Positions 21,948-61,631 of a stretch of 64,000 nt of DNA are shown piece after piece. The stretch comes from Promethearchaeota archaeon (GTDB lineage Archaea; Asgardarchaeota; Lokiarchaeia; Sigyniarchaeales; SOKP01). The notes below the pieces were generated by a model, which had not been told where the DNA came from, ran no database searches, and saw only the letters and a program-made list of their open reading frames with translations. Positions within the stretch are counted from its first letter, which is position 1; every line of letters starts with the position of its first letter. The translations under genes were made by a program, and so were the position numbers. The stretch is taken from NCBI GenBank assembly GCA_048940925.1, contig JBHLOC010000001.1, positions 160,001-224,000 on the forward strand, given 5' to 3'.

Positions 21948-23613
21948 TCAATGATTTAGAGTTTTAGAGACATATACACCATCTATTTTATATCCCATTT
22001 CATAGAACCAATCTCTTGCTCCAATACCACTTATTACTACTAGTTTTTTTGCTCCAAATTCTTCAAATGAGGTTTTTTCAGCATTTTCCATTAATAATTT
22101 TCCATATCCTCTATGTTGTATTTGAATAAGTCGCTTGGGTTTCAAGTCTTTTGGAACCATTTCTCCAACTACCTTGATTTCCCTTACGATTAATGTTTTT
22201 CCATCATTTATTTCAGGTCTGTGGGCAAATTCAGAAGGCTTTCTTAAGCGTAAATATCCAATTAAATAATTTTCGATTTTATTCTCATAGGATAAGAATA
22301 TTTCTTTTCCCTGAGAAGCATCATAATCAAAACGATATAGTTTTATTTTATCAAAGGATTTCTCATCAATAAGTTCCTCTTTCTTACTAATCCCATATTC
22401 TCTACATCTAATACATTTGCAAGTTTCATCCCAACTTTTTAGTCTCTCTTGGACTAACTGTCTTAAATTGCTATTTTTACAACCTGCTTTGATTAATGTC
22501 GCAGGTATATCTCTCATTATTCTTTGAATTCTCACATAGGATGGAAGGTTTTTTTTAGCCATTGCAATTAATTCAATTAAGTCTTCATCCGAGTATGGTA
22601 AGTAATTTCCATTTTTCCACCAATTATGCAATTCAGTACCATCTATCACGAGAGTAGGATAAATTTTTAACATATCAGGTCGATAATCTGGATTAGAAAA
22701 TAAGCTATCAAATAATTTTAAATCTTTTTGAATAGTTGAACCGGGTAAATTTGGCATTACATGTGCATTGATTTTTAATCCTGCATCTTTAGCAATCCTT
22801 ATCGATTCAATGCTATCAGCAGTTGTATGCCCTCTTTTCACTAGATCATAGATTTCATTATAGACTGTTTGAATACCAATTTCGACTCGCGTTGTTCCAA
22901 AATTTAACATATTATCTACATGTGTCTCTTTACAATAATCTGGTCTTGTCTCAACGGTAATACCTATAACCCTTCTTTTAGATTTTTCTGCTAATAGCTT
23001 AGCTTCTTCCAAACTGCCTGTTTTTTGTTTTATTATTCCCTCTAATGCCCCTTTAACGAAATGTGTTTGATAATCTGGATCAGTTGATAAGAAAGTCCCA
23101 CCCATTATAATAAGTTCAATCTTTTATGGTGGCAAACAATTAAGCGTATACCATGTCCACTTTATGCCCAATGGCTTCTAAATCTTTTATTCGAGATTGA
23201 ACTTGCTTATAAGGATCATAATTGTTATGGATTGATCTCATCGCCGCTGGTTCTCTTCCTGTATATGATTGGGCAACTTTTTCCCCTGGTTGGGAGTTTA
23301 CTCCAGGACAGTATATACATGTTCCGGGACAAGGAAGAGGTTTAGTCATAATTGCTATTACTGAAACTCCTGAAATTGTTCTTGTTGTTCTTCTCTTCAA
23401 AAATTTATTGATAATCTCTTTTTCTTCATTTGTTGCATGGTGTATAATACTGGCATTTTTTATAACTCGATTATAATTATACTTTTTTCCAATTTGTCCT
23501 TTAAGGTTTGTTATTTTTCTGCGAGAAGTTTTAGGATTTTCTAAAAGATACTCAATTATTTCTCTTGCTATTTTCTTTACTATACTTGAGTTTATATTAT
23601 CTGATTGTTCCAT
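21948..23613 (-). CDS. elp3: tRNA uridine(34) acetyltransferase Elp3, split by a 31-nt intron; join(23155-23613, 21948-23123), 544 aa
   Basis: Exon 1 carries CPGTCIYCPG and SYTGREPA; exon 2 carries MGGTF, ETRPD, KIYPTLV and QHRGYG; removing 23124-23154 restores IGHKVD-KIELIIMGGTF. Confidence 0.9.
23124..23154 (-). other. BHB-type (tRNA-endonuclease) intron in elp3
   Basis: Central helix GUGG/CCAU, bulges ACA and AAA, intron stem UGGUA/UGCCA; outer exon helix weak. Confidence 0.82.
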
Positions 23614-23699
23614 TCTTAAATTAATTAATTTGATAGAAAGATTTAAATCTTCATGAAAATTATACTTTTCGATTTATCTTTTAATACAAATCTCAAGCA

Positions 23700-24173
23700 A
23701 TATGATTTCTATTTCAAAATAAAGGAAGAAAAAATAAGATACACTAAAAGATGGTTTCTATATCAGAAAAAGTACAAGTCAAAAAATTTATCTCCTTAAC
23801 ATCTATTATCAAATTTATCAAGCTTTTCAAAATATTCTAAACTCTAATCTAAACCTTTCATTTGCAATAAATTCTTTAAAGATGTATAATTGTTAATCCC
23901 AAATTTTCCTACAATTCTTTTTATTTTTATAATTAAACCTTGTTTATGCCATACTTGATATTTTTGATGCAAATCTGACCCAAATTCTGAATTAAGGATA
24001 TCAATAAAAAACTCCCGAATAGAAGGATCTCTAAATGTGCTTTATCCCTCAGGTTTATCTAAATATTTGAAGATTTCGTTAACATCTCTATCTATAAGAA
24101 AATATTATGCTAACTTGTAGGTAGTTATCTCAAAATATCCTAAAGTTTCTGAAATTAGTCTATTAAGTGTCAT
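23700..24173 (-). pseudogene. Possible degraded ORF of unknown function
   Basis: Frame from ATG 24173 reads protein-like (MTLNRLISETLGYFE...FRDPSIREFFIDILNSEFGSDLHQKYQVWH) but has several stops; 3' boundary approximate. Confidence 0.3.
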
Positions 24174-24395
24174 ATGAGTTTTGATATCATACTTTTTAAA
24201 AAATTTTTGTAAGAAATTTTTTTGTTCTCTTGTATTTTGTTCAAATCATTAAGAATTGTAGATTCTAAATATTAGATTTAAATTTAAAGTTTCGAAAAAA
24301 TATTTTTTTGAAATTGTTTCATAAATATTTAAATATGGAATGTTACATATAGATTATAGTATGAAAAAATTTAACTTTAAGGTGATATATACAAA

Positions 24396-25922
24396 TTGTC
24401 GGGAGGTTTGAAAAACATTATCGCTACAGTTACAACTACAATTGAAGAAAAAGTTAATTTCAGTCAATTGGCAAGTAAATATTCCGAACTATTATATAAT
24501 CCCGAGAAGTTTCCTGGATTGATCATGCAGATAGAAAAACCGAAAGCAACGGTTGTGTTATTTTCCACTGGAAAAATGGTTATAACAGGACTTCAGCAAA
24601 CCTCAGATGTTGAAAAAGTAATGGAAAAAGTAATTGAGTTTTTTAGAGCTGAGGGAATAGAATTAAAAAATCTGGAAATTTCAATGGAAAGAGTAAAGCC
24701 AAAAAGAATAAAAATATGCCTATTAGGGGAAAAAGGTGTTGGAAAATCTACTTTAATGGACACAGTATTAAAATCTTCAGAGAAAGTTACAACTAAAAAA
24801 CAAAAAGATATTATCGGAGTAGATTTTTTTAATGTAAAAGTTAGAGATATTGATGGTAAGGACGTTATTCTACAATTATGGAATATAATTGACGAAGAAC
24901 GTTTTAAACAAATTCAGCAAAATTATTATGTGGGCGCTGATGGAGGGATTATATTCTATGATATCACAAATAAATCCAGTTTTGAAAATCTTGATAATTA
25001 TGTTTCAGCATTTAGAAAATCAAAAAGAAATCGAAACATCCCTATTATTTTGGTTGGAAATAAATTCGATCTTCGAGAAAATAGAGAAGTCTCGCAAACT
25101 GAAGCTTCCAAGGTAGTGGTTACTCGTAAAATGGTAGGTTATCTTGAATTTTCTGCGCTAGATAGTCAAAATGTAATTAAATTATTTGAATCAATTTGCC
25201 GAATTATAATACGGAAAAAAAACTTAATCTCTATTTCTGAAGCTTTGGAAAATGATCTTAATTTAAGAATTTTGATGAATTTACAAATATTTAAAGAATT
25301 AAGTTTGGTAGAGATCTCGAAAAGAGTTGTTAAAAGTAAAGCCACTATTTCTCGTCATACTCGAAATTTAATTAAGCTAGGTCTAATTGAATCTCATGTT
25401 AAAGAGATAGAACCGCAAACAGGTACGATTAAGCGAAAATATTATACATTAAGTAAAGATTTGAGCTATCATATAGAAAAAAGAGATTTTAATTTTTCTC
25501 AATTGAAATCAAGAATAAAATGGAAGATATTTTCAGAGTTTTATCTAAAAAAACTATATAATTTCAAAACAGTTAATCTCTTATCAAAAAGATTAAATAA
25601 TATGCTAGAAGATTTTAATAATCATATTTTTGGTGGTTTTCCGGCACTCATAAAGCAATATGGAAAATATATTGAAAATTTACCTATAAATTTTCAATTT
25701 TTAAATGAAAAGCAAAATCAAAAAGTTCAGTCTCTATTACTAAAATTTGATTCAAAATTAAGAGATATATTAGCAGATGATGATGGTTCAGAGAAGTCTT
25801 ATTTATTTTTGAATATGACGCTTCCAACAGTGGATTTAATAAATCTCTTTGAAAAACCTGAACTGTTTAACCATATAATTCTAAATCGAGAGATTAAAAA
25901 AGAGAAAAAAGGTTTTGAATAA
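24396..25922 (+). CDS. Fusion: TBP-like repeat + Rab/Ras-like small GTPase + winged-helix regulator
   Basis: YNPEKFPGLI...LFSTGKMVITG (TBP); GEKGVGKS, LVGNKFD, EFSA (GTPase); LVEISKRVVKSKATISRHTRNLIKLGLI (wHTH). Confidence 0.85.
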   Translation: MSGGLKNIIATVTTTIEEKVNFSQLASKYSELLYNPEKFPGLIMQIEKPKATVVLFSTGKMVITGLQQTSDVEKVMEKVIEFFRAEGIELKNLEISMERVKPKRIKICLLGEKGVGKSTLMDTVLKSSEKVTTKKQKDIIGVDFFNVKVRDIDGKDVILQLWNIIDEERFKQIQQNYYVGADGGIIFYDITNKSSFENLDNYVSAFRKSKRNRNIPIILVGNKFDLRENREVSQTEASKVVVTRKMVGYLEFSALDSQNVIKLFESICRIIIRKKNLISISEALENDLNLRILMNLQIFKELSLVEISKRVVKSKATISRHTRNLIKLGLIESHVKEIEPQTGTIKRKYYTLSKDLSYHIEKRDFNFSQLKSRIKWKIFSEFYLKKLYNFKTVNLLSKRLNNMLEDFNNHIFGGFPALIKQYGKYIENLPINFQFLNEKQNQKVQSLLLKFDSKLRDILADDDGSEKSYLFLNMTLPTVDLINLFEKPELFNHIILNREIKKEKKGFE

Positions 25923-26122
25923 TAATTATAAAGTAATTTTCTTTCTTGCAAAATCTCTTTTATATTTGCCAAATTTCTCTTTACTCAATTATAACTATTT
26001 TACCCCGAAAAGGTTCTTTAAAAATTACCAAAATTTTGAATTTTTTTGTGAAATTTTAAAAGTGCATTTAATAATGAGTTGGGGTGATCTCCAGTGTTGC
26101 ATAATATTATAAAAAACTCAAG

Positions 26123-26467
26123 ATGATTTCAGACTATATAAATAATTATTTAGAAGCGACAGAGAGTCATCTCTTGACATCTGTAGCTATGGGAGAAATA
26201 CCAATGATAGAGATAATTAATGTACTTATGGAAGCACTCGAGAAGAACTTGATACACTATCAGTTTATATCTGAGGACCAATACAAGAAGGTTAAGGCAT
26301 TAAGCCTTGAGTCTCATTCTAAATTAGCTGAGATTCTAAAAAAGGATGAAAATCCTGTGAAGCCTTATTTATTCTTTGATATCTTGCTTAAAATGCTAGG
26401 TGTTGTTAAGATTGGTAATAAAACAAGCGAAGCTATATTAGGGCTTCGACAGACAATAAAGACTTAA
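26123..26467 (+). CDS. Fragment paralogous to the C-terminal domain of the upstream fusion protein
   Basis: IHYQFISEDQYKKV...KLAEILKKD...KPYLF aligns with INFQFLNEKQNQKV...KLRDILADD...KSYLF. Confidence 0.55.
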   Translation: MISDYINNYLEATESHLLTSVAMGEIPMIEIINVLMEALEKNLIHYQFISEDQYKKVKALSLESHSKLAEILKKDENPVKPYLFFDILLKMLGVVKIGNKTSEAILGLRQTIKT

Positions 26468-26470
26468 AAA

Positions 26471-27316
26471 TTACTCTAATAATATCTTCTTACCAGTAAA
26501 ATCTCTTTTATACTTCCCAAAATCTTGAATTTTTTTGAGAGTTTCCGAATTAAAAATTGGTCCATCTTTACAAACCAGTAAACCTAATGGATCTAGAACG
26601 CATAATCCGCATAATCCGCACCCACACCTCATTATCCTTTCTAGACTTGCATAGAACTCAAGGTGATATTCTTGACATAACTGAAATAATTCAAACAACA
26701 TAATTTCTGGACCACAAGAATAGACAATACTATTAGACTGGTCTTTTTTATTAAATTTTCCAATTATCTCTTTAAAGACATCAGGAATTAATCCCTCTGT
26801 TCCATAACTTCCGTTGTCAGTACAATAATATACTTCAGTTTTAATTTTTTTAAAATAGTCAATATAAATTAATTCATTATCTATCTTAGCACCTTCAATT
26901 ACATAGTGTTTTATTTTATTTTCTGAAAGTTCTTTTGATAAGAATTTTAGAGGAGCCATACCTATCCCTCCACCAACTAAGAAAATATTTTTAGAACTAT
27001 CCGTTGGAATTTTAAAATGATTACCTACAGGCCCCCTTACTCCAATAAAATCTCCAATCTTTAAGTTATACATAGCATTTGTACATTCTCCAACGTTTTT
27101 TATTGTAATTGACCAATTTCCATCATTATCGCATCCAGAGAGGGACATTGGAACTTCATCTATGCCGGGTACCCATACCAAAACAAATTGGCCTGGTTTA
27201 GGAATAATGGAATTTTTATTTTTACTTGATTTCATGTTAAAAACAAGCGTTTTAATATCTTTACATTCATCAATAATATTCTTTATTTTCACTGTTTTAA
27301 TTGTATTTTCAGTCAA
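26471..27316 (-). CDS. pyrK: Dihydroorotate dehydrogenase electron transfer subunit
   Basis: PGQF, GGGIGMAP, CGPE, MRCGCGLCGLC..CKDGP. Confidence 0.94.
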   Translation of the reverse strand: MTENTIKTVKIKNIIDECKDIKTLVFNMKSSKNKNSIIPKPGQFVLVWVPGIDEVPMSLSGCDNDGNWSITIKNVGECTNAMYNLKIGDFIGVRGPVGNHFKIPTDSSKNIFLVGGGIGMAPLKFLSKELSENKIKHYVIEGAKIDNELIYIDYFKKIKTEVYYCTDNGSYGTEGLIPDVFKEIIGKFNKKDQSNSIVYSCGPEIMLFELFQLCQEYHLEFYASLERIMRCGCGLCGLCVLDPLGLLVCKDGPIFNSETLKKIQDFGKYKRDFTGKKILLE

Positions 27317-28235: not shown

Positions 28236-28313
28236 TTTTTAAAAGAAAATAATGATTATGATCTTATAAATCATTTTTAATAGAGTTATAATAATTTAGA
28301 ACAGTTCAAAAAA

Positions 28314-29519: not shown

Positions 29520-29536
29520 GGTAAATAAATAGAAAA

Positions 29537-30235
29537 ATGACAAAAACTGAGATTAGAAATCATCCAAAATTTTCTAATGTTTTTATATCCGGCCCTCGAG
29601 AAAAATTAACACTGTATACTAAAAACCTAGATCAAGGTTTTAAGGTTTATGGTGAGAAATTAATAGAATATAAAGGAGAGGAATATAGAGAATGGGATCC
29701 ATTTAGGAGTAAACTAGCAGCTCTAATCTTAGAAAACCCTACTAGAAATTTCTTATCTATTGATTTTAATTGTTTGTATTTGGGTGCATCATCAGGGACA
29801 ACAATCTCCCACCTTTCAGATATCATACCCACAGGAATTATATATGGTGTTGAATTTTCTGAAAGAAGCATCAGACAATTAATTCAGAACACATCAAATA
29901 GAAAGAATATTATTCCAATATTAGGAGATGCTAGAAATCCTGAAAGTTATGCAAAATCAATTTTTACTAAAGTTGATTTAATTTACCAAGATGTTGCTCA
30001 ACCTAATCAAACCGAGATAGCAATTCGTAATTGTAATTATTATTTAAAAGATGGTGGAATATTAATTCTTGCTATAAAATCCCAATCTATAGATAGTATT
30101 CAAAAATCTGAACTTGTTTATGCTAAAGAACAATCTACTCTCAAAAAAGCAGATTATAATCTCATAGAAAGTGTAAATATACATAAATTTGCCGCTAATC
30201 ATATTATATTGATTGCAGAAAAAACATTCACTTAA
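29537..30235 (+). CDS. flpA: Fibrillarin-like rRNA/tRNA 2'-O-methyltransferase
   Basis: VYGE, WDPFRSKLAA, LYLGASSGTT, DVAQP. Confidence 0.96.
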   Translation: MTKTEIRNHPKFSNVFISGPREKLTLYTKNLDQGFKVYGEKLIEYKGEEYREWDPFRSKLAALILENPTRNFLSIDFNCLYLGASSGTTISHLSDIIPTGIIYGVEFSERSIRQLIQNTSNRKNIIPILGDARNPESYAKSIFTKVDLIYQDVAQPNQTEIAIRNCNYYLKDGGILILAIKSQSIDSIQKSELVYAKEQSTLKKADYNLIESVNIHKFAANHIILIAEKTFT

Positions 30236-30927
30236 AAGAATTCAGTTATTTTTCTATTTGCCACCTCTTCATTTAATATATTTTTAGTTGTATCCCATGA
30301 TTTCCTTGCAATTTGTGGTGCTTTTTTATGTTTTTTTACCCATACTCGAAGAAATTCTATAGTTGTTACATCAGAGGGATATCCCGATCCAAATTCTCCA
30401 TACTTTTTTTTTAATTCGTCTATTGAGGTGTCTCTTTTATTTTTTGCAATTATAGATCCAGCTGAAACTATTGGATAAATATCATCAGCTTTATGTTTCG
30501 AAATTATTCTTTTAGGTTTGTAATTTAGTAATTTTTTGATTGACCGACCAAATCTTTCTTCATTTACATCAGCAGCATCAACATATATGATGTCTGGTTT
30601 TAAAATATTAATAATTTCAGCCATTTTTAATTCTTCAAGTCGATTCATCGTAATATTCTTTTCCTTTCTCTGATCTATCTCTTCAGGATCTACTATGATA
30701 ATTTTATAGGAATAACAATTGTTTTTGATAAGTTTAGATAATTGACTCCTCCTTTTGGTTGATAATTTTTTTGAATCTTTAACCCCAATTTCAGATAAAA
30801 ATTCTAATTTATGATTAGTAAAACAGACGCCACAAATAACCATAGGACCTAAGACAGAGCCTTTTAACATATAATTCGATCTGAATTATTTTCTGCCAGC
30901 CTCGTCTATACCACAAATTACTTCCAA
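30232..30927 (-). CDS. rnhB: Ribonuclease HII, split by a 30-nt intron; join(30893-30927, 30232-30862), 221 aa
   Basis: Exon 1 (TTG) reads EVICGIDEAGR; exon 2 reads GSVLGPMV..KDSKKL..KAD..GSGYPSD; the insert carries an in-frame TAA. Confidence 0.92.
30863..30892 (-). other. BHB-type intron in rnhB
   Basis: Helix UGGC/GUUA, bulges AGA and AAA, intron stem AUAAUUC/GAAUUAU, exon stem AGAC-GAG/CUC-U-GUCU. Confidence 0.88.
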
Positions 30928-30934
30928 CTTTTCA

Positions 30935-31933
30935 TCAAGATTCTTGTATGAGTTCAATGAATTCTTCCTCATCATCAATTTTTTCTAAATTCTTTATTTT
31001 AACAATATGTATATCATCTTTTTTTATTAAGGCTGGAATTTTTACATGGTTATTGACAATAAATAGAGCTGTTTTATGGAATAACTCATTAAACATCTTT
31101 AAACATCGAAAATTCATTTGATTTATATTTTTCTGCTCCTCAGAGATAGCTGAAAACAGAGGATAAAAGCCCTCTTCAGTTTTTTCAATCGAAGAAAACA
31201 ATGATAATTTAAAGGGTATTGAGCCTTTCTTATACCAATATGCGGACAATCCTATATCGTCTATTATTGAATTTACACGTGATTCAAAATCACTTAACTC
31301 TTTTTCTTCTTGATTTTCAATATCTCTTTGATGAGAATTAATTTTCCATTTAAAGATATTAATCTTTTTGAAAATTTCATTATTATCTAGTATATTTAAT
31401 ATTTTTATGGCAATTTGATCTGAGGGTCGCATACTTTCGTTTTCATAAGCACTTATTGTCCTCTTAGTAACGCCTAGTTTTTCAGATAATTCCTTTCTTG
31501 TTATTAATTGTTTTTCTCTTATTGTTTTCATCAATATACCGTCTAAAAAGACTACACCGCCACCTCTTCTTGCTAAAATATAGGGGTATATATTTTTATT
31601 TAGAATTTTCTCAAAAGTATTTAATGTTATAAAAGGCAAACCTTCTCTTACATATATTGTATTATCCTCTAAGTTTTGGTATCGATTCTTGATGCCAATC
31701 AATAATGGTTTTGATTTTAATATAAATGATAATTGTTTAATATCTCGGATGAGGTCAGGATTTAAATTATCTATATTAGGAAAGACTTTAAGGCTAAAAA
31801 CTTGATCATTCTTTTTTACTAATAAATCAAAACAAAATTTTGTCTTTTTGCTAGCAAAATTTCCTATATTTAAGGTTTCAAAGTTCGCCTTCTTCAGTAA
31901 ATCATCAATCTTCTCTATGACTGTACTTATCAT
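30935..31933 (-). CDS. Archaeal XRE-type HTH transcriptional regulator
   Basis: RRGGGVVFLDG, ELSEKLGVTKRTISAYEN. Confidence 0.8.
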   Translation of the reverse strand: MISTVIEKIDDLLKKANFETLNIGNFASKKTKFCFDLLVKKNDQVFSLKVFPNIDNLNPDLIRDIKQLSFILKSKPLLIGIKNRYQNLEDNTIYVREGLPFITLNTFEKILNKNIYPYILARRGGGVVFLDGILMKTIREKQLITRKELSEKLGVTKRTISAYENESMRPSDQIAIKILNILDNNEIFKKINIFKWKINSHQRDIENQEEKELSDFESRVNSIIDDIGLSAYWYKKGSIPFKLSLFSSIEKTEEGFYPLFSAISEEQKNINQMNFRCLKMFNELFHKTALFIVNNHVKIPALIKKDDIHIVKIKNLEKIDDEEEFIELIQES

Positions 31934-39089: not shown

Positions 39090-40726
39090 CCATTTTCTTG
39101 AATCTTTATTATTTTTAAGTATTTTATTTCTTTTTTCATTTCTAGATTTGAAAGAATAAATATTAAATTAACAGTAGAAAGATTTTCATCCTTTTCAAAG
39201 AGAGGTAAGATTTTTCTGATTGTCCTAAAAATCGATCCTGCTTTATTGTAAATACTTGGGATAAATAAATTTGAAAAGATAATATTGTTATTTTTAACTT
39301 GGAGTTCTATTGAAATATAATATGTAATAATAAAAAATATCTTCTCAGGTGTAGTTAATTCATTAAAAGTAATTTTCTCCCGATTATTTCGAACAAATCC
39401 GATTTTTATTAAATAGGTCTTATTATCATTGCTTAAGTGAATTCTAAAATTTGATTTTAAATTAATTTCTTGTAAGAATTTGTTAATTAATGATTCAAGT
39501 TCCTCAATCTTAGATTCTAATCTTTGATAACATTCACATATTTCTGTAATCTGCTCTAAATTTTTTTCTATTTTAATTTCACTCTTATGAATTTTCAAGT
39601 TATTAATAATATCATCTAATTTTTTCTTTATTCTTGATAAATCTTCTGGATTATGAATATCATATAGGTCTTCTGGAATTAGAATTGTTTTCAATTCATC
39701 ATTAGTTTTTTTAATGTCATCTTCGATGTTATGTTTCGATCTTATTGATTTTAAATCAATTCCATCAAAATCTTCATGAAAACTATTCTTATTTGCCAGA
39801 ATATTTTCTTTAAGTTCAAGTTGTAATTTTTCAACTCTCTCTTCATCTGTTTTAATAATACTGTTGAGCTTTTCATAATCTCGTTTATATACTTCATAAA
39901 GAGGGTTAAATTCGTTGTATTTTAATTTAGTTTCGCCTATTTTTTGATTAACATTATTAATTTCACTTTGTATCTCTTTAGCTTTCTTCTGAAAAACCCT
40001 TATTTTTTGAGCATTCGTTAGATTTTCATCAATTTCAGGAATTATATTAGATTCTTCTTGCTCTTTTATAGGAGTTCCAGACATTTCACGTGTTATTCTA
40101 TTAATTTGACTGAAAAATTCTTTTTTTTGATTTGTTAAATCTTTAACTTTTAACTCGTACTTTTTGATATTGTTATTAATCTGGTCAATTTGATTCTTTC
40201 GTTGAAGATAATCTTCTTCAAGATATTTCAAGTTCTTTTTATTCTCATTTATAGAATCATTTAACTTATATAGTAAATCAGAAATTGCAGTTATATCACT
40301 TACTTTTCTATACTCTTCCGTAATTTCTAATTCTTTTAAAAAATTTTCCTTTTTTTTTAAAAGAAAGTTAAATCTGAGAAGCAATATAATTGACTCTATA
40401 ATTTTACTGTACTGTGAGATCATTGCAATGTTTTTTTCCATAAGATCATGAAATTCATTGATAAGGCTTATCAATGTTAAGCCTTTTTCAAATAGTTCAG
40501 AATCTTCTAATCGCTCTACATAGATCTTAGTTAATTTTTTTAATGGGATTAAATCAATGTCCTCAAGGATTTCGGAGAAGACTTCATTTTTGAGATAATC
40601 TACCATGTTCTTTTTAAATCTTCCTTTTATTACTGTATATCTATCTTGAATTGAAATTTCCGTAGAACCAATGGAAAATTTAAAATAATCTTCTGTAATC
40701 TTAAAACCCTTTAATTGATAATTTAG
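39086..40726 (-). CDS. SMC/Rad50-like coiled-coil protein with degenerate ABC head (start probably upstream of ATG 40606, CTA 40726 proposed)
   Basis: N-terminal YQLKGFKI..FKFSIGSTEISI..YTVIKG, long coiled coil, C-terminal ELTTPEK and IIFSN at the signature and Walker B positions. Confidence 0.55.
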   Translation of the reverse strand, partial: LNYQLKGFKITEDYFKFSIGSTEISIQDRYTVIKGRFKKNMVDYLKNEVFSEILEDIDLIPLKKLTKIYVERLEDSELFEKGLTLISLINEFHDLMEKNIAMISQYSKIIESIILLLRFNFLLKKKENFLKELEITEEYRKVSDITAISDLLYKLNDSINENKKNLKYLEEDYLQRKNQIDQINNNIKKYELKVKDLTNQKKEFFSQINRITREMSGTPIKEQEESNIIPEIDENLTNAQKIRVFQKKAKEIQSEINNVNQKIGETKLKYNEFNPLYEVYKRDYEKLNSIIKTDEERVEKLQLELKENILANKNSFHEDFDGIDLKSIRSKHNIEDDIKKTNDELKTILIPEDLYDIHNPEDLSRIKKKLDDIINNLKIHKSEIKIEKNLEQITEICECYQRLESKIEELESLINKFLQEINLKSNFRIHLSNDNKTYLIKIGFVRNNREKITFNELTTPEKIFFIITYYISIELQVKNNNIIFSNLFIPSIYNKAGSIFRTIRKILPLFEKDENLSTVNLIFILSNLEMKKEIKYLKIIKIQENG

Positions 40727-41763
40727 TCGTTCTCGAAATGATTTTTGTATTTCTTATACTCTTTTTCTTTTTTGATTTTTCTTTCCCTAATTAAATCGAG
40801 AGGATCTTGTTCATCATCTTTTTGAATTAAATACTTCTCTGCAAAACTTTTGTCTAATTTTGATTTAAATTTCTCTATTTTTTCTGATACTTCATCACTA
40901 ATTTCTATTTTTTTAGTTTTTTTATTTGTAGTTCTTATATTGCTCAATTTCTCTCGAGATTTTTTACGAATTTTTCTCTCAAAATCTTTATCAGATAATT
41001 TTAAATAATCCTTGTAAGCTTCTTTTTGCTCTTCTTGTTTCTTTTTCAATTTTTCTAGTTCTTCTCTTTCTTTTGCTTTTGCTATAAATTCTTTTTTCGT
41101 CTCCAGTTCTTTTTGGGTTAATTTGCTCTTGATATCTTTAAGAAATTCTGGAAACGTGATATTCGGATCATCGAGAAAGGCTACTTCAAAATCTTTTATT
41201 AAAGAGGGATCAGTATCTTTAGGTATTTTACTCAATTCTAATTTGAGTTTATCTTGGATTAAATTTTCATAGTACAAATCAATTTTTTTTATAGTACTTA
41301 AAAATAGTGAGTTTTGTTTTAATGAATCTAAAATTTCTATCCATTGAGTAACTTCTATTGATGGGACAAATGATATCTCATGTATAGCTTTATTAATTTT
41401 TCTTTTTTCAATCAAATATAATCCAATTTCTCTTAGAACTCTTTGATTTAATTTGAGTCTTTTTAATCGCTCTTGGTTTTTTTCTTTAAATTTTTTGATC
41501 AAACTCTCCTGAAGATATAAAAAACTGTTTATATTATCCTTTGATATATATTCTAAGTTCTTTTTTAGATCATTTATCAAATTTATTATATCTTCAATTT
41601 GAGAAAGGAAAACTTTATTCGTAAAATCATGAATTACTGACTGCTTAAAAGTATTAATATTGATATAATCTTCATTTAATTGATAGAATTTTGCTTGAAG
41701 CACATCTATCGAGGATGTTAAATCCTTAATTTTCTCAAGGTTGAACGATTGGTTTCCTATCAT
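40723..41763 (-). CDS. Hypothetical coiled-coil protein
   Basis: 346-aa ORF, charged helical C-terminus, operonic. Confidence 0.7.
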   Translation of the reverse strand: MIGNQSFNLEKIKDLTSSIDVLQAKFYQLNEDYININTFKQSVIHDFTNKVFLSQIEDIINLINDLKKNLEYISKDNINSFLYLQESLIKKFKEKNQERLKRLKLNQRVLREIGLYLIEKRKINKAIHEISFVPSIEVTQWIEILDSLKQNSLFLSTIKKIDLYYENLIQDKLKLELSKIPKDTDPSLIKDFEVAFLDDPNITFPEFLKDIKSKLTQKELETKKEFIAKAKEREELEKLKKKQEEQKEAYKDYLKLSDKDFERKIRKKSREKLSNIRTTNKKTKKIEISDEVSEKIEKFKSKLDKSFAEKYLIQKDDEQDPLDLIRERKIKKEKEYKKYKNHFEND

Positions 41764-41800: not shown

Positions 41801-43021
41801 TTAAATTTCAGGGGGACTAGGTAAATCTTTTCTTCCTTCCTCACTAAAGATAGATCTATTAAAAGTGTTCTTAGTACTACTTAAAACGTCTTGTCTTTCA
41901 ACGTGGGAGGCTGTACCACCAACTAAGCGCAATGAATTAAAAAATTCATCATAAGTAAGTAATTCTGTACTAATAGCTTTTAATAACGCAACTCTAATTC
42001 CCCTTTCAATATCAGAACCAGAATACCCATATGTTAATCTTAATAATCCACTTATCTTACTTTTCTTATTAATTTCTTCCCATAAAATATTATCATCGAA
42101 TTCTGAAATTTTTCGGCCTAATTTGGTTTGTAATTCCTTAGCAATCAGCTGAATTTCTATATATTCATTATTTAAATTCGAAAATATTGAGTTATCAACG
42201 CCTATTTTTGCATTCTTTATTTGATTGACAAATGATTCAATAATTTTTTTGCGTAAATGATAATCAGGGAAATTGAATTCAAAGTGGAATGTGAAGCGAC
42301 GCCAAATCGCGGAATCAAGCTGGTGTTGATGATTAGTTGCACCGAAAACTGCTAATGGGACACCTTCATAATTAATCCTGTCGATAACTTGTAAAAAAGA
42401 AATTACAGCTCTTTTAATTTCTCCAACTTCATGAACATTTGACCTTTCAGAGCCAATAGCATCAATTTCATCGAAAAACAGGATAAAGGCTCCTCTCTCT
42501 TTTGAAATTTCTGCTGCTAATTCAATAACACCTCTAATGTTCTTTATTGTGTCTCCCAATAATGGCGATACAAGTCTATCGGATTCTACAATACATATAG
42601 GTATATCGTATTTTTTAGCAAATCCCCTTGTTAAAGAAGTTTTACCAGTACCAGGAGGACCATATAGAAGTACTGTTAAATTAGGGGTCAATTTTGTATC
42701 CTTTAGTTGTTCTGTAAACTCCTCGTATTTTATCAAAGCTCTAAAAAAATCATCTAAAATTTCCTTTTTTATTTCATTTCCTAAAATATCTTCTACGGAC
42801 TCTTTTATATCTGCTGAAAAATATACAGCTCCATACTTTCCTAATCGCTCTTTTATCACATCGTCGCTATAAATGGTCTTTGCCTCACCATAATCTTTCT
42901 TTTCTGTAGTGATTGAAGATTTGATACTGAATTCTTCTTTTTTGTATTCTAAGTGAGCTTCATATGTTTTTCCTCTAAAGTGTTTTTTTTTACATAATGT
43001 GCAGTAATAAGGTAAAGACAT
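41801..43021 (-). CDS. AAA+ ATPase with N-terminal CxxC-H-H Zn finger
   Basis: YGPPGTGKT, FFDEIDAI, ATN, LDSAIWRRF, GYSGSDI; YYCTLCKKKH...H. Confidence 0.9.
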   Translation of the reverse strand: MSLPYYCTLCKKKHFRGKTYEAHLEYKKEEFSIKSSITTEKKDYGEAKTIYSDDVIKERLGKYGAVYFSADIKESVEDILGNEIKKEILDDFFRALIKYEEFTEQLKDTKLTPNLTVLLYGPPGTGKTSLTRGFAKKYDIPICIVESDRLVSPLLGDTIKNIRGVIELAAEISKERGAFILFFDEIDAIGSERSNVHEVGEIKRAVISFLQVIDRINYEGVPLAVFGATNHQHQLDSAIWRRFTFHFEFNFPDYHLRKKIIESFVNQIKNAKIGVDNSIFSNLNNEYIEIQLIAKELQTKLGRKISEFDDNILWEEINKKSKISGLLRLTYGYSGSDIERGIRVALLKAISTELLTYDEFFNSLRLVGGTASHVERQDVLSSTKNTFNRSIFSEEGRKDLPSPPEI

Positions 43022-46603: not shown

Positions 46604-46605
46604 AT

Positions 46606-47706: not shown

Positions 47707-47918
47707 GCCTAAAATCCACTCAATTATAATTAAACTTTCAAACTATTTCAGCCAAAAAGAGTGATTTAGCTAATTAAGCATCCCTAAAAAATTTTTCTAA
47801 AACCACTTAAAATAATTCTAAATAAAAGCAAAAAATTTTTAGCAAGTGTTTCTAATTAATTAATTAGAAATTAATAACTTATTATTGTAATTAATATCAT
47901 TTTTTGGAGAAAATTAAT

Positions 47919-48497
47919 ATGGGACGTCGAAAAAGAAAACAAGTCAGCCCCAAAAGAGTAAAAAGAGTACCTAAAATTTTCACATGTCCTGAATGCGGTG
48001 AAAAGAGTGTAAAAGTGATTGATATAAAAAAAAAAGGTGCTTTTGCAACTGTGAAATGTGGAAATTGTGGATTAACAAAAGAAGTATTAGTTAATTCGAT
48101 TTCAGAACCTGTTGATGCGTTTGGGGATTTTATTGATATATATTATGCAGATCAGGAGCTCCAAAGGTTAGAACGACGTATTCAAAAATTAAAAGAAGAA
48201 AATGAATGGGGCGAACTAGCATTATCATATTCTATCCTATCAGATCTTTGTAAAACTAAAGCTGCATTATTATTAGAAGAAGAAGATGTTAATTTGGATG
48301 ATGTTAACAAATGGAAAATCAAGGCAGAAGAATATAAACAACTTGAAAAAAACACAATAATAAAACTTGATGCCGATGAATTAGAAAGAGGTGTCCGGAC
48401 TGATGAAGAATCTTTGTTTACTGAAAGCGAAACTAAAATAAAAAAAGAAAGAAAGTTAGATGACATCTTTGATGATCCTGGATTTCTAGAATTTTAA
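47919..48497 (+). CDS. elf1: Transcription elongation factor Elf1 homolog with long C-terminal extension
   Basis: MGRRKRK..FTCPECG..VKCGNCG..EPVDAFGDFID. Confidence 0.85.
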   Translation: MGRRKRKQVSPKRVKRVPKIFTCPECGEKSVKVIDIKKKGAFATVKCGNCGLTKEVLVNSISEPVDAFGDFIDIYYADQELQRLERRIQKLKEENEWGELALSYSILSDLCKTKAALLLEEEDVNLDDVNKWKIKAEEYKQLEKNTIIKLDADELERGVRTDEESLFTESETKIKKERKLDDIFDDPGFLEF

Positions 48498-49975: not shown

Positions 49976-51010
49976 TTATACAGAGAAAAGTGAAGTTAAA
50001 ATATTATCTCTATAATTTGCTTTTATAATTTTAACCTTGATGTTTTTTCCAATTAATCTATTAGGATTAGATATTGATTTACTTAAAAGTATTTTCACCC
50101 CAAAATTATCATTTATTTTTCCAATAAATTCATTTTTCCAACGTCCTTTTGAGATCACAGTTAAATTTATCATTTCATTTTTTTCTAATTTTGTAGAAAT
50201 ATCACTTTTACGTCTATGAATACCAAAATCCTTTGGACCAAGTTTCAGTTTTATATTATATTTTTTTTCTAAATTGGTTAATTGAGTATAGAAATAAGCC
50301 CAACTTTTAGGTTGTATTTTTTTCAATTTTCTACCAGTTTTATAAATTAAATATTTTTGTATACCAATTTGAATTTTATTATCAGAATAACCTTTCTTTC
50401 TTAAATTAATTATAAACTTAATTACATCTTCGATATCTTGATCATTTTCTCCAGGAAACCAGACTGGAGCAATAAGTAAATCAATATTAGTATTCAATAG
50501 AAAATGTAAATTTTCTATGAGATTATTAATATTATAATCATGACAATTACTTAAATAACTGGATTTTTCTTGATTTAAAGAATTAAGACTAACATTTATT
50601 CGAGTTAAATGAACTCTTTCAAGATTTTCAATAACTTCTTTTTTTAGTAATAATCCATTTGTTTGCATTGAAATAATTTCAATTCCTTTTATTTTCCAGA
50701 GATAATCGATCAATTCAAACAATTTAGGATAAAGGAGAATTTCACCATAAGGAGCTAAATGAATTTCAATCTTGTATTTTCCTTTAATTTTAACTATTTC
50801 TTTTACTTTTTCTATTATATACTCTGGATCAACAATAAAATTAGTGAGATAATCTCCAGCTCTCACAAAACAGTATTTACATTTCAAATTACATAAAGTT
50901 AGAGGTTTGAGTTCAATAACATTTGTACCCCTATCAATAACGCCAATAAAATCTATGCCATATAAAGGGATTTGTGACTTTTTATCCACATAAATTATTT
51001 CAGGTTTCAT
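49976..51010 (-). CDS. Radical SAM protein with TRAM-like C-terminus
   Basis: CNLKCKYC, DRGTNVIE, MQTNG. Confidence 0.85.
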   Translation of the reverse strand: MKPEIIYVDKKSQIPLYGIDFIGVIDRGTNVIELKPLTLCNLKCKYCFVRAGDYLTNFIVDPEYIIEKVKEIVKIKGKYKIEIHLAPYGEILLYPKLFELIDYLWKIKGIEIISMQTNGLLLKKEVIENLERVHLTRINVSLNSLNQEKSSYLSNCHDYNINNLIENLHFLLNTNIDLLIAPVWFPGENDQDIEDVIKFIINLRKKGYSDNKIQIGIQKYLIYKTGRKLKKIQPKSWAYFYTQLTNLEKKYNIKLKLGPKDFGIHRRKSDISTKLEKNEMINLTVISKGRWKNEFIGKINDNFGVKILLSKSISNPNRLIGKNIKVKIIKANYRDNILTSLFSV

Positions 51011-52089
51011 ATCCTATCAAGCTTATATCGTAATATTCCTACTATTGATCCCAGATTTACTAATTGTTCTCCAGGGATATTTTCTGTACTCATGATGTTT
51101 ACTGAACCTCCAGAATTTTCCACATTGGTTATAATTTCTTCGATTTTCAGCTTTTGTTCCTTATCTGTACCTCGAATCAATATATCTGCTATTAAAAGAT
51201 GTTTAATTGCGCCTCGTTCTGATGCTTTTGAAACTTCGTTAAAACCAATAACCACTAAATCAGCGTCTTCCCCAAACTGAGAAAGAACCTTTTCAACTAG
51301 GTGTGCTTCTTGTAAAATTTTTGCTCTTTTTTTAATGGTAGCTAATTCTTTTGATTTTAAAGTCTCTATTATAGCACTTTCTGTTCCCGAACTTGCATGA
51401 AAAATTTTTATTTTGTTCTTATAAGTTGTAGTGGCTGAATTTTTTATATAATTAATAAAATGGTTTTTTGTATTTCCAGGTCCACATATTATTATCAAAT
51501 TTATATCATAAGTCTCTAATTTTTCTTTTAAAATTCTCTCTATATCTCTAAAAAACTCGATTAATGCCTTATTTCTATAGGTTTGTTTGTATCTTTTACC
51601 AGGAATATTCTTTTTTATAGTTGCAACCCTTTCATGTCGAAAGTTAGTTATAAGAGCTAATGTTGCTAACCCAGTTTCAATGGCAATAATAAAAATAATA
51701 AAATTGCTTTCAAATTTTGAGCTTTCTTTCAATCGTCTTATCTCATGATTTAACCACTTTTCTTTTATTATAGAAATTATATGGTTTGTTTCTATATTAA
51801 ATGTGTGATAAGTGCCGTAACTAACAAAATCTTCAGGACCTTCTAATATTCTTCCTTTTATTCTTAACCGATTTGAGAACTCATGAAAAGAAGTACTTTC
51901 AACTTTTAATTTTAATCTCATTATTTTACGATCTCCCTTAGTACCTTCTTTAAGAACAACTCTTCTTTGAGTTATAGATGAGACTTCGTCATCTTTACTA
52001 ATTACATTATATAGCGTCCACAAGTCGTTAAGACTTTCAGTTTGAACTGTAATTTCACTCCGTTTTTGATTGATACTTAAAATTTTCAA
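51007..52089 (-). CDS. pelA: mRNA surveillance protein pelota
   Basis: NDLWTLYN, FSNRLRIKG, YHT, IPGKR, GPG, GILRY. Confidence 0.93.
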   Translation of the reverse strand: MKILSINQKRSEITVQTESLNDLWTLYNVISKDDEVSSITQRRVVLKEGTKGDRKIMRLKLKVESTSFHEFSNRLRIKGRILEGPEDFVSYGTYHTFNIETNHIISIIKEKWLNHEIRRLKESSKFESNFIIFIIAIETGLATLALITNFRHERVATIKKNIPGKRYKQTYRNKALIEFFRDIERILKEKLETYDINLIIICGPGNTKNHFINYIKNSATTTYKNKIKIFHASSGTESAIIETLKSKELATIKKRAKILQEAHLVEKVLSQFGEDADLVVIGFNEVSKASERGAIKHLLIADILIRGTDKEQKLKIEEIITNVENSGGSVNIMSTENIPGEQLVNLGSIVGILRYKLDRI

Positions 52090-52386: not shown

Positions 52387-52460
52387 TTTAATTTAACACC
52401 ATTTCTTTTATATTAATGTAAAAAAATTAATTTTAATACTTACAGTTATTATAATAGAAT

Positions 52461-54783: not shown

Positions 54784-54793
54784 TAATGAATAT

Positions 54794-55630: not shown

Positions 55631-55654
55631 GATTATAAATAAATAATTTTTAAT

Positions 55655-55969: not shown

Positions 55970-56061
55970 GGTAGATTTTTATTATATTTTTAGTTCAGAT
56001 TAATACATTAGTTGATGTCAATTTATATAAAAGTTATTTCATTTTAAACTTAAAAATTCTT

Positions 56062-58728: not shown

Positions 58729-58828
58729 ATTTCATTTTTTTAGTGTTCATGAAGAGATTTAAATTATCATAATCTTATTAAATATACATTAAGAATAAAG
58801 TTATAAAATTAGTGTCGAGGTTTTATAT

Positions 58829-59554
58829 TTGTTACACAATTTTTACTTGATTCATCAACACACAGGAATCTGTCTCATTCATAGGAAATATGGGACAATT
58901 GAGTTTAACCAAGACTTAGTAAGCGGTTTTCTAACTGCACTTAAAGATTTTTCAGTTGAATTCTCCAAGGGTTCAGGAGAATTAAAAGTTATAGATATGC
59001 AAGTATTTTATCTTCTGCTTGTTTTTAAGGAAGGTGTTTTATGTACAGCTGCAGCAGATAAAAATGATGATGCGAAGATCACTCATAAAGCTTTAACAGA
59101 CATAATTGACAAATTCATCGTTAAATTTGGAGATACTCTTAAGGAATGGTCTGGTGATGTTCGCATCTTTCGTGAATTCGAACAGGTGATTGATAATGTT
59201 TTAATTAATGGAAAGGTTGCTGAAATTAAGCTTACAATTCCAATTCTTAAAATATTCAAAAAAGACTTTCTTAAATCTCAGAAAAGGATTGCTAAAAAAG
59301 GTCTAGTTTTATCAGAGGAAGACTTGCGAGTAGTAAGTGAAAAGAAACCAGAATGGACATTAAAGAGATTACCAAAGCAGGTTATTACACAAGGATTTTT
59401 AGATGAAATAGAATATAAAATTGCCCATCTAGCTGATGGATTTCACACTATCCCTGAGATTGCTGAAGAGTCTGGTAAACCAGAATCACAAATTCAGAGA
59501 ATTATAAAAAATTTGGATGATTTAGATTTGATTTCTTATATTGAAATTAAATGA
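58829..59554 (+). CDS. Longin-like domain + C-terminal winged helix
   Basis: FYLIH..GICL..DLVSGFLTAL..F typical of Asgard longins; TIPEIAEESG..IKNL. Confidence 0.65.
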   Translation: MLHNFYLIHQHTGICLIHRKYGTIEFNQDLVSGFLTALKDFSVEFSKGSGELKVIDMQVFYLLLVFKEGVLCTAAADKNDDAKITHKALTDIIDKFIVKFGDTLKEWSGDVRIFREFEQVIDNVLINGKVAEIKLTIPILKIFKKDFLKSQKRIAKKGLVLSEEDLRVVSEKKPEWTLKRLPKQVITQGFLDEIEYKIAHLADGFHTIPEIAEESGKPESQIQRIIKNLDDLDLISYIEIK

Positions 59555-59713
59555 TAGTGAACTTATTCTTTAGGTTATAATTAATTTCAAAATTAGTTTT
59601 AAGTTGTTAATCAATTTTCCTTGTTCAAATAATTATAGCAAATAATTTAATAGTAAAACATTATAGAATTAAATAAAAATATTTTTGAGAGTAGGTTTAC
59701 TAAATAAATTAGG

Positions 59714-61186
59714 ATGAATGTTATTAAAATTGATGAAAATATATACGAGATTCCCCCAAAAGCTTTGATGACACGGATTCACGGCAACATTGAAAAATTT
59801 CAAATGAGAGTACCAGTAAGGATTTATGCTAATGACTATATTTTAGAAAAAATTAAGTTAGATCGTACTCTTGATCAAATTTGTAATGTTGCTTGTTTAG
59901 AAGGAATAAAAAAACATGCTATTGCATTATCAGATGCACATCAAGGGTATGGTTTTTGTATTGGAGGTGTTTGTGGTACAGAGGCAGGATCTGGTATGAT
60001 ATCACCTGGAGGTGTAGGATATGATATTAATTGTGGAGTTCGCCTTTTACGTACTAGTTTAATGTTTAAAGATATTAAAAATAACCTTCCAACCTTGATT
60101 AATACGATTTTTAAGAATATCCCTTCAGGTTTAGGATCTAAAGGTAAATTAAATATAAGCTATTCAGATTTAGATAAAGTTTTAAACGCGGGAGTTAACT
60201 GGGCATTAGATAATGACTATGCAATCGAAGAAGATATTAAATTTTTAGAAGAAAATGGATGTTTGAAAGATGCAGATGCTAGTTTAGTCTCCCAAAAAGC
60301 AAAACAACGCGCTATTAAACAATTAGGTTCCTTAGGAAGTGGGAATCATTTCATTGAAATTCAAAAAGTAGATAAGATTTATAATAATAATGTTGCCAAA
60401 AAGCTAGGAATCCTTGAGAACAATCAGATAACATTAATGGTTCATACAGGGAGTAGAGCTCTAGGTCATCAAGTTTGTACTGATAGTTTACGGAATATTG
60501 AGCAAGCAATGAAAAAGTATAAGATTAAAGTTCCAGATAGAGAACTAGCTTGTGTTCCAGCAGATACACCTGAGGCTCAGAGCTATTTAAAACAAATGGC
60601 TTGTGCTGCCAATTTTGGTTTTACTAATCGTCAGTTGATAACTCATTGGATAAGAGAATCATTTCAACGAATATTTAGTAATGATATTGATGCTTTAGGA
60701 CTTCATTTAATATATGGTGTTTGCCATAATATTTTAAAAATAGAGGAACACGAAATTGATGGCCAAAAGATGAAATTAAACATTCATCGTAAGGGTGCAA
60801 CTAGAGCTTTTCCGCCAGGTCATCCAGTACTACCCCCAGATTATAAAGAGATTGGTCAACCTGCTCTGATTCCTGGAACAATGGGCTCAGCCTCTTATTT
60901 ATGTGTAGGAAAACCAAAAGCAATGGATTTATCCTTTGGATCTACTGCGCATGGATCTGGTCGTTTAATGTCTAGAACAAAAGCAACTAAAAGATATTGG
61001 GGAGCTAAAGTAAAGGAAGATTTAGGAAATAAAGGCATTTTAATTAAAAGCGCATCAATGAAAGTTTTGGCCGAAGAGAGTCCTGGAGCTTATAAAGATA
61101 TTGATCAGGTAGTTCAGGTTAGTCATGATCTTGGAATTGTTGAAAAAATAGTAAAATTAGTACCTATCGGAGTTGTGAAAGGATAG
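59714..61186 (+). CDS. rtcB: tRNA-splicing ligase RtcB
   Basis: DAHQGYG, GYDINCGVR, GSGNHF, HTGSR, HN, HRKGATR, STAHGSGR. Confidence 0.97.
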   Translation: MNVIKIDENIYEIPPKALMTRIHGNIEKFQMRVPVRIYANDYILEKIKLDRTLDQICNVACLEGIKKHAIALSDAHQGYGFCIGGVCGTEAGSGMISPGGVGYDINCGVRLLRTSLMFKDIKNNLPTLINTIFKNIPSGLGSKGKLNISYSDLDKVLNAGVNWALDNDYAIEEDIKFLEENGCLKDADASLVSQKAKQRAIKQLGSLGSGNHFIEIQKVDKIYNNNVAKKLGILENNQITLMVHTGSRALGHQVCTDSLRNIEQAMKKYKIKVPDRELACVPADTPEAQSYLKQMACAANFGFTNRQLITHWIRESFQRIFSNDIDALGLHLIYGVCHNILKIEEHEIDGQKMKLNIHRKGATRAFPPGHPVLPPDYKEIGQPALIPGTMGSASYLCVGKPKAMDLSFGSTAHGSGRLMSRTKATKRYWGAKVKEDLGNKGILIKSASMKVLAEESPGAYKDIDQVVQVSHDLGIVEKIVKLVPIGVVKG

Positions 61187-61193
61187 CTAAATT

Positions 61194-61631
61194 TTAAATA
61201 TCAAAAACAACATCTATTTCAATTTTATTCTTTTTTTCTTCAATTTTCATCATATTATATGTGATAGCTTTTACTTCTGTCCCAACTTCATGCTTTTCAA
61301 TATTAAAGACTTCACCTTTGGCAATAGCTTCTAACTTATAATTATCATTTTTTTTATTAATTCTTTTTACTTTAACTGAACTAAATACTAATTCTTCTAC
61401 ATCAAAGATATAAAGAAATTCTGAGAGAAAATCAAAGAGTAATGCCTCCATGTCTTCTGATACAATTTCTATAATTTTTTTTTTTTTAGGAAGTATTAAT
61501 TTTAAATTAGGACTTATGGTTGTCATTAAACTATAAACTACTTGCTCAAAAGCTCCTTCTAAAGTTTTTGAATATGCCTTTATGTAAATATCCGCTGTAT
61601 GATCTAAGAATTTAAAGCCTTCTTCTTTCAT
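61194..61631 (-). CDS. Archease
   Basis: DHTAD, EVKAITY, VFDI; adjacent to rtcB. Confidence 0.94.
   Translation of the reverse strand: MKEEGFKFLDHTADIYIKAYSKTLEGAFEQVVYSLMTTISPNLKLILPKKKKIIEIVSEDMEALLFDFLSEFLYIFDVEELVFSSVKVKRINKKNDNYKLEAIAKGEVFNIEKHEVGTEVKAITYNMMKIEEKKNKIEIDVVFDI

Follow-up and report, generated by a model that had tools for sequence, protein, structure and literature searches.

The closest published precedent for the interrupted genes described here is the bulge-helix-bulge (BHB) intron found in the pre-mRNA of cbf5 (pseudouridine synthase) of Crenarchaeota, namely Desulfurococcales and Sulfolobales (Watanabe 2002; Yoshinari 2006; Yokobori 2009, PMC2738675). We analysed a 64,000-nucleotide stretch of DNA (hereafter the window) from a Promethearchaeota (Asgard) archaeon, in which the genes for Elp3 and RNase HII are each split by a BHB-bounded insert of about 30 nt, and we searched the whole genome for similar cases. 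The window spans positions 160001-224000 of contig C40 of a 4.82-Mb, 90-contig metagenome assembly (designated G000; 28% G+C; estimated contamination 8.4%), and its gene content fits an Asgard archaeon (a fusion of a Ras-type GTPase and a TBP domain, Nop5-fibrillarin, Elf1 and CDP-archaeol synthase, all recognized with Pfam). The relatives of G000 are labelled G001-G024 and so on, and the same-genus set comprises 24 genomes, G000 included.

The likeness to cbf5 lies in the short BHB-bounded intron placed within a protein gene, in its gain and loss among related species, and in its removal by a hetero-oligomeric tRNA-splicing endonuclease, which we propose for the present introns as well. As for the differences, a single gene is concerned in Crenarchaeota, whereas at least 14 introns in 13 unrelated genes, including those encoding EF-2 and the RNA polymerase subunit A', occur in the one Asgard genome studied here. 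Furthermore, the present introns form a uniform size class of about 30 nt, two of them lie only 5 nt apart, with a micro-exon in between, and their splicing is inferred from sequence.

In the archaeal BHB motif, each strand consists of four central-helix nucleotides followed by a 3-nt bulge, which is cut after its second nucleotide (PMC5829648). The Asgard tRNA-splicing endonuclease EndA has been reported to be an (alpha-beta)2 heterotetramer with a broad-specificity loop (PMC5829648). Some Asgard lineages carry a heavy load of tRNA introns, which were gained repeatedly and whose arrival route has been declared open (PMC11291895; bioRxiv 10.64898/2026.10.13.758758); protein-coding hosts are not mentioned in these two reports, and our literature search found no paper on Asgard mRNA introns. 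The inserts described here share with archaeal tRNA introns the motif, the cut rule, the presumed enzymes and the size, and a 30-nt T-loop intron in a tRNA gene of the window has the same lay-out. They differ from tRNA introns in that the host is an mRNA, the outer helix is provided by coding sequence, and there is a reading frame to restore.

The splicing of HAC1 and XBP1 is likewise independent of the spliceosome and uses a protein endonuclease leaving a 2',3'-cyclic phosphate, the ligation being carried out in metazoans by RtcB with archease. The endonuclease is there IRE1, a kinase-endonuclease that recognizes twin stem-loops, with 7-nt loops bearing a CNGNNG motif at the splice sites, in one regulated target, whereas EndA would act here on BHB motifs in many genes, for which no sign of regulation was found. 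The present splice sites lie in 3-nt bulges, not in hairpin loops, and the resemblance is limited to the RtcB/archease ligation. Finally, inteins and homing-endonuclease introns also occupy conserved motifs of essential information-processing genes, are patchy among close relatives, and travel along with flanking exon sequence. By contrast, the 30-nt introns lack coding capacity, bring no endonuclease with them and are unrelated in sequence, so that any spread must use the cell's own recombination.

The interrupted Elp3 and RNase HII genes

The Elp3 gene, located on the minus strand, was called as two open reading frames (ORFs) in different frames: 23140-23613, with an ELP3_N domain, and 21948-23105, with Pfam matches to Radical_SAM, starting only at profile position 73, and to Radical_SAM_C. 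Exon 1 (23155-23613) encodes ELP3_N (E 1e-10) and the start of the radical-SAM domain, and it ends with the residues IGHKVD, after which its frame reaches a stop four codons into the insert. Exon 2 (21948-23123) begins with KIELIIMGGTF and encodes the remainder of the radical-SAM domain, Radical_SAM_C and the acetyltransferase part. On the minus strand, exon 1 ends with GGG CAU AAA GUG GAC and exon 2 starts with AAG AUU GAA CUU AUU AUA AUG GGU GGG ACU UUC; the excision of the 31 nt in between (23124-23154) fuses the two frames into GHKVD↓KIELIIMGGTF (arrows mark the cuts).

The minimum-energy fold of the Elp3 insert comprises a central helix GUGG/CCAU, the bulges AC↓A and AA↓A, and an inner stem UGGUA/UGCCA, i.e. 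a relaxed BHB (HBh'). Cutting after the second bulge nucleotide yields GAC↓AAG (D↓K), exactly as in 26 intron-less relatives (GH..DK[IV]ELI), in which Elp3 is a single open frame of 545-566 amino acids.

The RNase HII gene, 7.7 kb away (intron to intron) and also on the minus strand, was called as an ORF (30232-30870) devoid of the catalytic GIDEAGR, a motif that occurs shortly before the ORF in the same frame, with AAA UAA (stop) coming after the motif. Exon 1 (30893-30927, starting with the TTG at 30927 or with that at 30957) encodes EVICGIDEAG and provides the AG of an arginine codon. Exon 2 (30232-30862) provides the A of this codon, followed by GSVLGPMVICG, and matches positions 8-199 of the Pfam RNase_HII profile. 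Excising the 30-nt insert (30863-30892) yields GGC AG↓A GGC, which restores the GIDEAG-R-GSVLGP sequence of RNase HII. The minimum-energy fold is a canonical hBHBh' motif with an outer helix GACGAG.C/G.CUC.GUC, a central helix UGGC/GUUA, the bulges AG↓A and AA↓A, and a 7-bp inner stem AUAAUUC/GAAUUAU.

Thus, for both Elp3 and RNase HII, the structural cut rule and the protein alignment, which are two independent criteria, point to identical phosphodiester bonds. In addition, the 5' bulges (ACA in Elp3, AGA in RNase HII) and the 3' bulge (AAA in both) are of the A-N-A and AAA types given in a preliminary description of the window. The placement of the introns in conserved motifs holds as well, since the 11-residue surroundings of the joints are at the 74th-99th conservation percentile in five genes. 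Both genes are therefore split as the preliminary description had it, and every element that it named was found in the sequence, including the tRNA intron and the ligation genes dealt with below; its interpretation, as will be seen, stands for the BHB introns in protein genes, fails for their density and for a general splicing layer, and finds no support for mobility in the sense of a transposing sequence.

The comparison of relatives provided evidence of another kind, as follows. First, the RNase HII insert occurs at one common site in all 24 same-genus genomes, and it was not found at the six loci inspected from other families of the order, which have an uninterrupted GIDEAGRGPV. It persists across the genus even though the RNase HII proteins have diverged to 64-83% identity. 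Second, in the alignment of 23 same-genus genomes, the seven exon-1 codons for GIDEAGR change at third positions only, and both exons are, on these sequences, under purifying selection. The 23 aligned inserts all contain a stop, often lack an ATG and have no conserved one. Third, the insert of G024 is 29 nt long, owing to a 1-nt deletion, and it would break the frame unless it is removed. Fourth, 92.6% of the pair cells of the BHB are paired in the 23 copies, a figure that falls to 24-48% if the partners are shifted by 1-3 columns; in four pairs both members have changed, and none of 500 shuffles reached the observed values. Fifth, one central-helix pair, which has the wobble base of a glycine codon on its exon side and the intron's first central-helix base on the other, occurs as U-G, C-G, U-A and G-C; an insert that was neither translated nor spliced would have no cause to follow a synonymous site upstream of it.

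Introns elsewhere in the genome

The genome of G000 was scanned for BHB motifs on both strands and at every position, with insert lengths of 12-150 nt, a 4/4 central helix and an inner stem, and candidates at the transition from one open frame to another further downstream were kept. As an internal control, the candidates were sorted by whether their removal fuses the two longest frames in phase or out of phase, and the two classes were compared, chance alone giving a ratio of 1:2. The raw BHB score gave no overall in-phase excess genome-wide, as AT-rich hairpins swamp it. The signal is visible only when the candidates are broken down by length under stricter ORF criteria (a codon-usage filter was of little help), and an excess then occurs at two lengths only, 30 nt (13 loci versus 3.5 expected) and 31 nt (8 versus 3); filtering on the bulge bases left 15 in-phase loci versus 6 expected at 30 nt.

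The top in-phase candidates were checked exon by exon against Pfam. The profile coordinates run on across the joint in EF-2 (exon 1, positions 3-35; exon 2, 49-187), a Ras-like GTPase (1-58; 60-157), methylmalonyl-CoA mutase (2-54; 58-512), DUF6125 (2-24; 26-164) and domain 1 of the RNA polymerase Rpb1 (the rpoA1 gene: 2-72; 74-312), as well as in AMP phosphorylase, a thiolase, a GH38 mannosidase (joint HWDRE↓WY) and an AIRS-like protein. The mevalonate kinase gene has a 31-nt intron with a relaxed BHB, whose removal gives the sequence GKTILFGE↓HFVVYG. Altogether, G000 contains 14 verified introns in 13 genes, i.e. 12 introns in 11 genes besides Elp3 and RNase HII. Further examples, which the preliminary description expected a genome-wide search to deliver, thus do exist. 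All four central pairs are formed in eight of these further introns, and the stem of the EF-2 intron shows one compensatory change, from G-C to A-U. No second, intact copy of the EF-2 or rpoA1 gene was found in the genome.

The rpoA1 gene is doubly interrupted, by a 30-nt canonical intron (C62:7961-7990) and a 35-nt intron (C62:7921-7955) that are separated by the 5-nt micro-exon AUAGA and lie within a 13-residue motif. Once both are removed, a stretch of 40 residues matches the uninterrupted protein of the nearest relative, G018, without a difference. A single 65-nt intron had been considered, for which no acceptable BHB could be drawn, and it was replaced by the pair. The two sites are also occupied separately: G017 has the first intron only, in canonical form (20 of 30 bases identical), and G022 has an intron at the second site only, of 85 nt, while the remaining relatives have neither.

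As a motif-free census of a sample, the ORFs of 800 kb (35%) of the closed relative G023 were aligned to G000. Three stop-bearing inserts stood out, in the mutase, the GTPase and a new GH57-like gene, the other six of the nine events being noise upstream of start codons. The GH57-like insert (C58:~85081-85111) is in frame, 30 nt long, contains a stop, gives the joint LPWVIGHG↓IWPHGMDW and is missing from G023; it folds into a GGCC/GGCC helix and a hairpin, and no canonical BHB was found in it. The reverse comparison (G000 ORFs against the 800 kb of G023) showed no intron private to G023, both of its events being alignment noise upstream of starts. As two of the three motif-free inserts had been recovered by the BHB scan, the scan sees roughly two thirds of the introns, and the genome probably contains 15-30 of them in total, in about 0.3-0.6% of its genes. 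At that number, two introns within 8 kb are not unusual. The density of the window, two per 64 kb, would give about 150 introns per genome if it held throughout, as had been supposed, and it does not; nor do these figures support the general mRNA-splicing layer that was proposed along with it.

Proposed splicing pathway and its rivals

The enzymes required for BHB splicing are encoded in the genome, and those for ligation in the window itself. RtcB, the 3'-phosphate RNA ligase (59714-61186, plus strand; full-length match to PF01139, E 1.2e-166), lies tail to tail with its activator archease (61194-61631, minus strand; PF01951, E 8e-43). Two EndA paralogs were found (PF01974 at C58:74241-74465, 102 bits, and at C18:73532-73780, 70 bits).

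The window also contains four clustered tRNA genes, two of them with anticodon-loop introns. A tRNA-Val(UAC) gene (12226-12328, plus strand), assigned by hand from the sequence, carries a 30-nt intron (12285-12314) at T-loop position 59/60; its T stem serves as the outer helix, its central helix is UUCA/UGGA and its bulges are AU↓A and AA↓C. It shares the lay-out of the mRNA introns and, as the preliminary description had it, their size. This gene was missed by ARAGORN and, when whole, by Rfam, which aligns no more than model positions 10-42 in the presence of the intron, and positions 1-62 when the sequence is cut at 12300. The minus-strand genes for tRNA-Lys(CUU) (11696-11797) and tRNA-Ser(UGA) (11836-11945) have anticodon-loop introns of 27-28 nt; they correspond to the two RF00005 matches in 11696-11945 (48.9 and 44.5 bits), with about 30 inserted anticodon-loop bases according to Rfam, and their introns were also called by ARAGORN with introns allowed. 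Run in this mode on the whole of G000, ARAGORN called only 34 tRNA genes, 22 of them with forced and often implausible introns, as well as a tRNA-SeC. These calls were set aside as a census of tRNA introns on account of the doubtful intron calls. Introns at non-canonical positions, or several per gene, probably interrupt most tRNA genes of G000, as has been reported for other Asgard lineages.

From the geometry of the inserts, their joints and their covariation we infer, with high though not complete confidence, that they are BHB introns in protein genes, cut by EndA and joined by RtcB with archease. We propose that each gene is transcribed with its insert and that the pre-mRNA folds locally, the last four nucleotides of exon 1 before the cut finding their partners in a four-nucleotide stretch close to the intron's 3' end. 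The resulting 4-bp helix would be flanked by two 3-nt bulges and accompanied by an intron-internal stem of about 9 bp. EndA, probably of the broad-specificity alpha-beta type in view of its two paralogs, would cut after the second nucleotide of each bulge, and RtcB with archease would join the exons, the intron of about 30 nt probably being freed as a circle. Full-length Elp3, RNase HII, EF-2, RNA polymerase A' and the like would be translatable only after splicing. As essential single-copy genes could not otherwise be expressed, the case for splicing is strong.

Several observations weigh against this proposal. The single-sequence folding energies of the Elp3 and RNase HII inserts are unexceptional (z -0.7 to -1.2), so that the case rests on geometry, not on stability. 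The geometry itself is relaxed in several motifs, including that of Elp3, which has no outer helix beside the 3' bulge, and that of mevalonate kinase (3 bp and a G.A mismatch), while the second rpoA1 intron and the GH57-like insert are non-canonical. Moreover, an exact 22-mer of the spliced EF-2 junction had no match in metagenome contigs, and a degenerate 26-mer of the spliced RNase HII junction had 30 matches there, all of them in intron-less genes of unrelated lineages, whose products are no more than 45% identical to the present protein. Likewise, the protein collections contain no near-identical contiguous EF-2 protein, the best match being 93% identical, so that a spliced version from this species, derived from RNA, is not documented there.

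The public EF-2 calls of the clade fall into length classes of 750, 702, 673 and 619 amino acids. The short classes probably represent intron-bearing alleles with truncated calls, and the 702-residue class may reflect an additional intron, located upstream of the site examined here.

Among the explanations that compete with constitutive splicing, one accepts that the inserts are genuine EndA substrates and assigns them a role mainly as switches, in which cleavage and conditional ligation would tune the protein level, as IRE1 and RtcB do with XBP1/HAC1. The introns do interrupt catalytic or highly conserved motifs, so that an unspliced mRNA would give a dead protein, genes of translation, transcription and tRNA modification are among their targets, and the window itself carries the RtcB and archease genes. 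Nonetheless, most of the introns occur in few of the 24 closely related species, the others doing without them, which speaks against a conserved regulatory role, and the only fixed intron is that of RNase HII; we therefore regard switching as an unlikely main function.

It is much less likely still that the inserts are disabling insertions in pseudogenes or decaying genes, in which nothing is spliced. Every insert does have an in-frame stop or shift the frame, and the public calls of the intron-bearing EF-2 alleles are short (619-702 versus 750 residues). However, the cell cannot do without EF-2 or RNA polymerase A', for each of which the genome has one gene only. Furthermore, the RNase HII insert is kept genus-wide, between exons that are both under purifying selection and with compensatory changes in its helices, and the insert size is sharply fixed, the in-phase excess occurring only at 30-31 nt.

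Equally little can be said for translational bypassing, in which the insert would stay in the mRNA and the ribosome would hop over it, as in gene 60 of phage T4. The 30-nt size, the hairpin in the gap and the stop after the take-off region are loosely reminiscent of gene 60, yet the take-off and landing codons are unmatched (GAC and AAG in Elp3; AGA and GGC in RNase HII). Likewise, the conserved BHB geometry, including its exon-intron pairing, is what EndA requires and not what hopping requires; this lay-out is also found in a tRNA, which no ribosome translates, and the two rpoA1 gaps, 5 nt apart, would demand two successive hops.

An assembly or sequencing artefact, for which the 90 contigs and the estimated contamination of this metagenome-assembled genome (MAG) might argue, is scarcely credible, because assemblies made independently from other samples have these inserts too, at identical sites (RNase HII in 24 genomes; EF-2 in eight of 24 and in eight named MAGs), in copies that differ in sequence yet keep the structure. 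Finally, self-splicing group I or group II introns were rejected on account of their ribozyme core of hundreds of nucleotides, the inserts being 29-85 nt long and Rfam finding only tRNAs in the window.

Distribution and turnover of the BHB introns

Apart from the RNase HII intron, which is present in all 24 same-genus genomes, the introns are patchily distributed in the genus. The EF-2 intron occurs in eight genomes (G000, G001, G007, G013, G016, G017, G018 and G023), and also in eight of about 31 separately named MAGs; that of AMP phosphorylase occurs in seven (G000, G005, G016, G018, G019, G022 and G024), that of GH38 in G000, G002, G019 and perhaps G005, that of methylmalonyl-CoA mutase in G000, G005 and G024, and that of Elp3 in G000 and G024, the latter being the only other genome with an Elp3 insert, whose boundaries are identical. 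These carrier sets overlap and are not nested, so that one gain per intron, with neither loss nor transfer, is not enough to account for them. On these distributions, the introns are a turnover-prone population, with one member fixed in the genus and others present in 2 to 8 of the 24 species in mutually incompatible patterns.

The sequences around the introns bear on how they travel. In a sliding-window comparison, a tract of Elp3 that covers exon 1, the intron and some 60 nt of what follows shares about 90% identity with G024, versus 40-80% for the other genomes, while the middle of the gene is nearest to G023 and G015 and its 3' end is nearest to G018. Similarly, the mutase gene is nearest to the other intron-bearers (88-94% identity) from -150 to +70 around the intron, and elsewhere to G018. 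These tracts suggest that homologous recombination carries the introns from one species to another, along with adjoining exon sequence.

Elp3 and the mutase gene (L177, on contig C71) are thus mosaics, their segments being nearest to different species, with switches near the introns. The mosaicism suggests frequent inter-species recombination, or else a chimeric assembly; as the source is a metagenome assembly with contamination, the identity patterns may partly be assembly chimeras, which counts against the movement proposed above.

A family of mobile-element introns has reportedly been proposed for tRNA introns of Thermoproteales. In G000, the 12 introns compared have a longest common substring of 7 nt, below the 8.3 nt expected from shuffled sequences, and no intron has a second copy in the genome. 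The idea of a repeated mobile element, either MITE-like (miniature inverted-repeat transposable element) or a transposing intron family, was rejected in the absence of related copies and of a common sequence. The mobile mini-introns suggested in the preliminary description thus found no support in the sense of a transposing sequence; what was observed instead is patchy presence, with recombination tracts linked to the introns.

Taking the above together, we tentatively propose, as a possibility that we rate below an even chance, that this Asgard lineage keeps a population of BHB mini-introns of about 30 nt, which essential protein genes acquire time and again in their best-conserved motifs and which pass between such motifs in a homing-like manner, by recombination that includes the flanking exons, and that its core gene expression (EF-2, RNA polymerase, RNase HII and Elp3) depends on EndA and RtcB, 5-nt micro-exons included. 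If true, the closest prokaryotic relatives of eukaryotes would possess a protein-only system of mRNA splicing that works on a genomic scale. Endonuclease-type mRNA splicing in archaea has so far passed for a curiosity of one crenarchaeal gene, and it would extend here to at least 13 genes of one Asgard genome. As the only copies of the EF-2 and RNA polymerase A' genes are interrupted, the core machinery would depend on EndA/RtcB splicing. It would also follow that the toolkit inherited by eukaryotes (TSEN, RtcB and archease) can act as an mRNA-splicing system in their archaeal relatives.

There are consequences for annotation as well, since gene callers turn the interrupted genes into truncated or split ones, such as EF-2 proteins of 619-702 residues instead of 750 and an RNase HII without its catalytic motif. 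Metabolic and phylogenomic studies of Asgard MAGs thus silently lose or mis-score intron-bearing genes. Furthermore, the patchiness within the genus, the rpoA1 sites 5 nt apart and the intron-linked tracts make this genus a tractable system for studying how BHB introns arrive.

Some minor observations remain. The rpoN gene (C26:~36651, plus strand; IIIPIRCFSCGK...) has no ordinary in-frame start codon, and a stop stands three codons upstream. In the window, the other adjacent ORF pairs on the same strand, such as 40723-41763 and 41801-43021, give no Pfam sign of being one gene. The window also encodes an Elf1-like zinc-ribbon transcription elongation factor of the eukaryotic type (47904-48497, plus strand) and a three-domain eRF1/Pelota-like protein (51007-52089, minus strand). 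Finally, the plus-strand ORF 24396-25922 encodes a 508-residue protein that comprises a TBP-like domain (residues 6-82), a small GTPase of the Ras/Roc type (106-271) and a helix-turn-helix of the ArsR/MarR type (about 290-333), and in which a transcription-factor fold is, unusually, fused to an Asgard-type GTPase.

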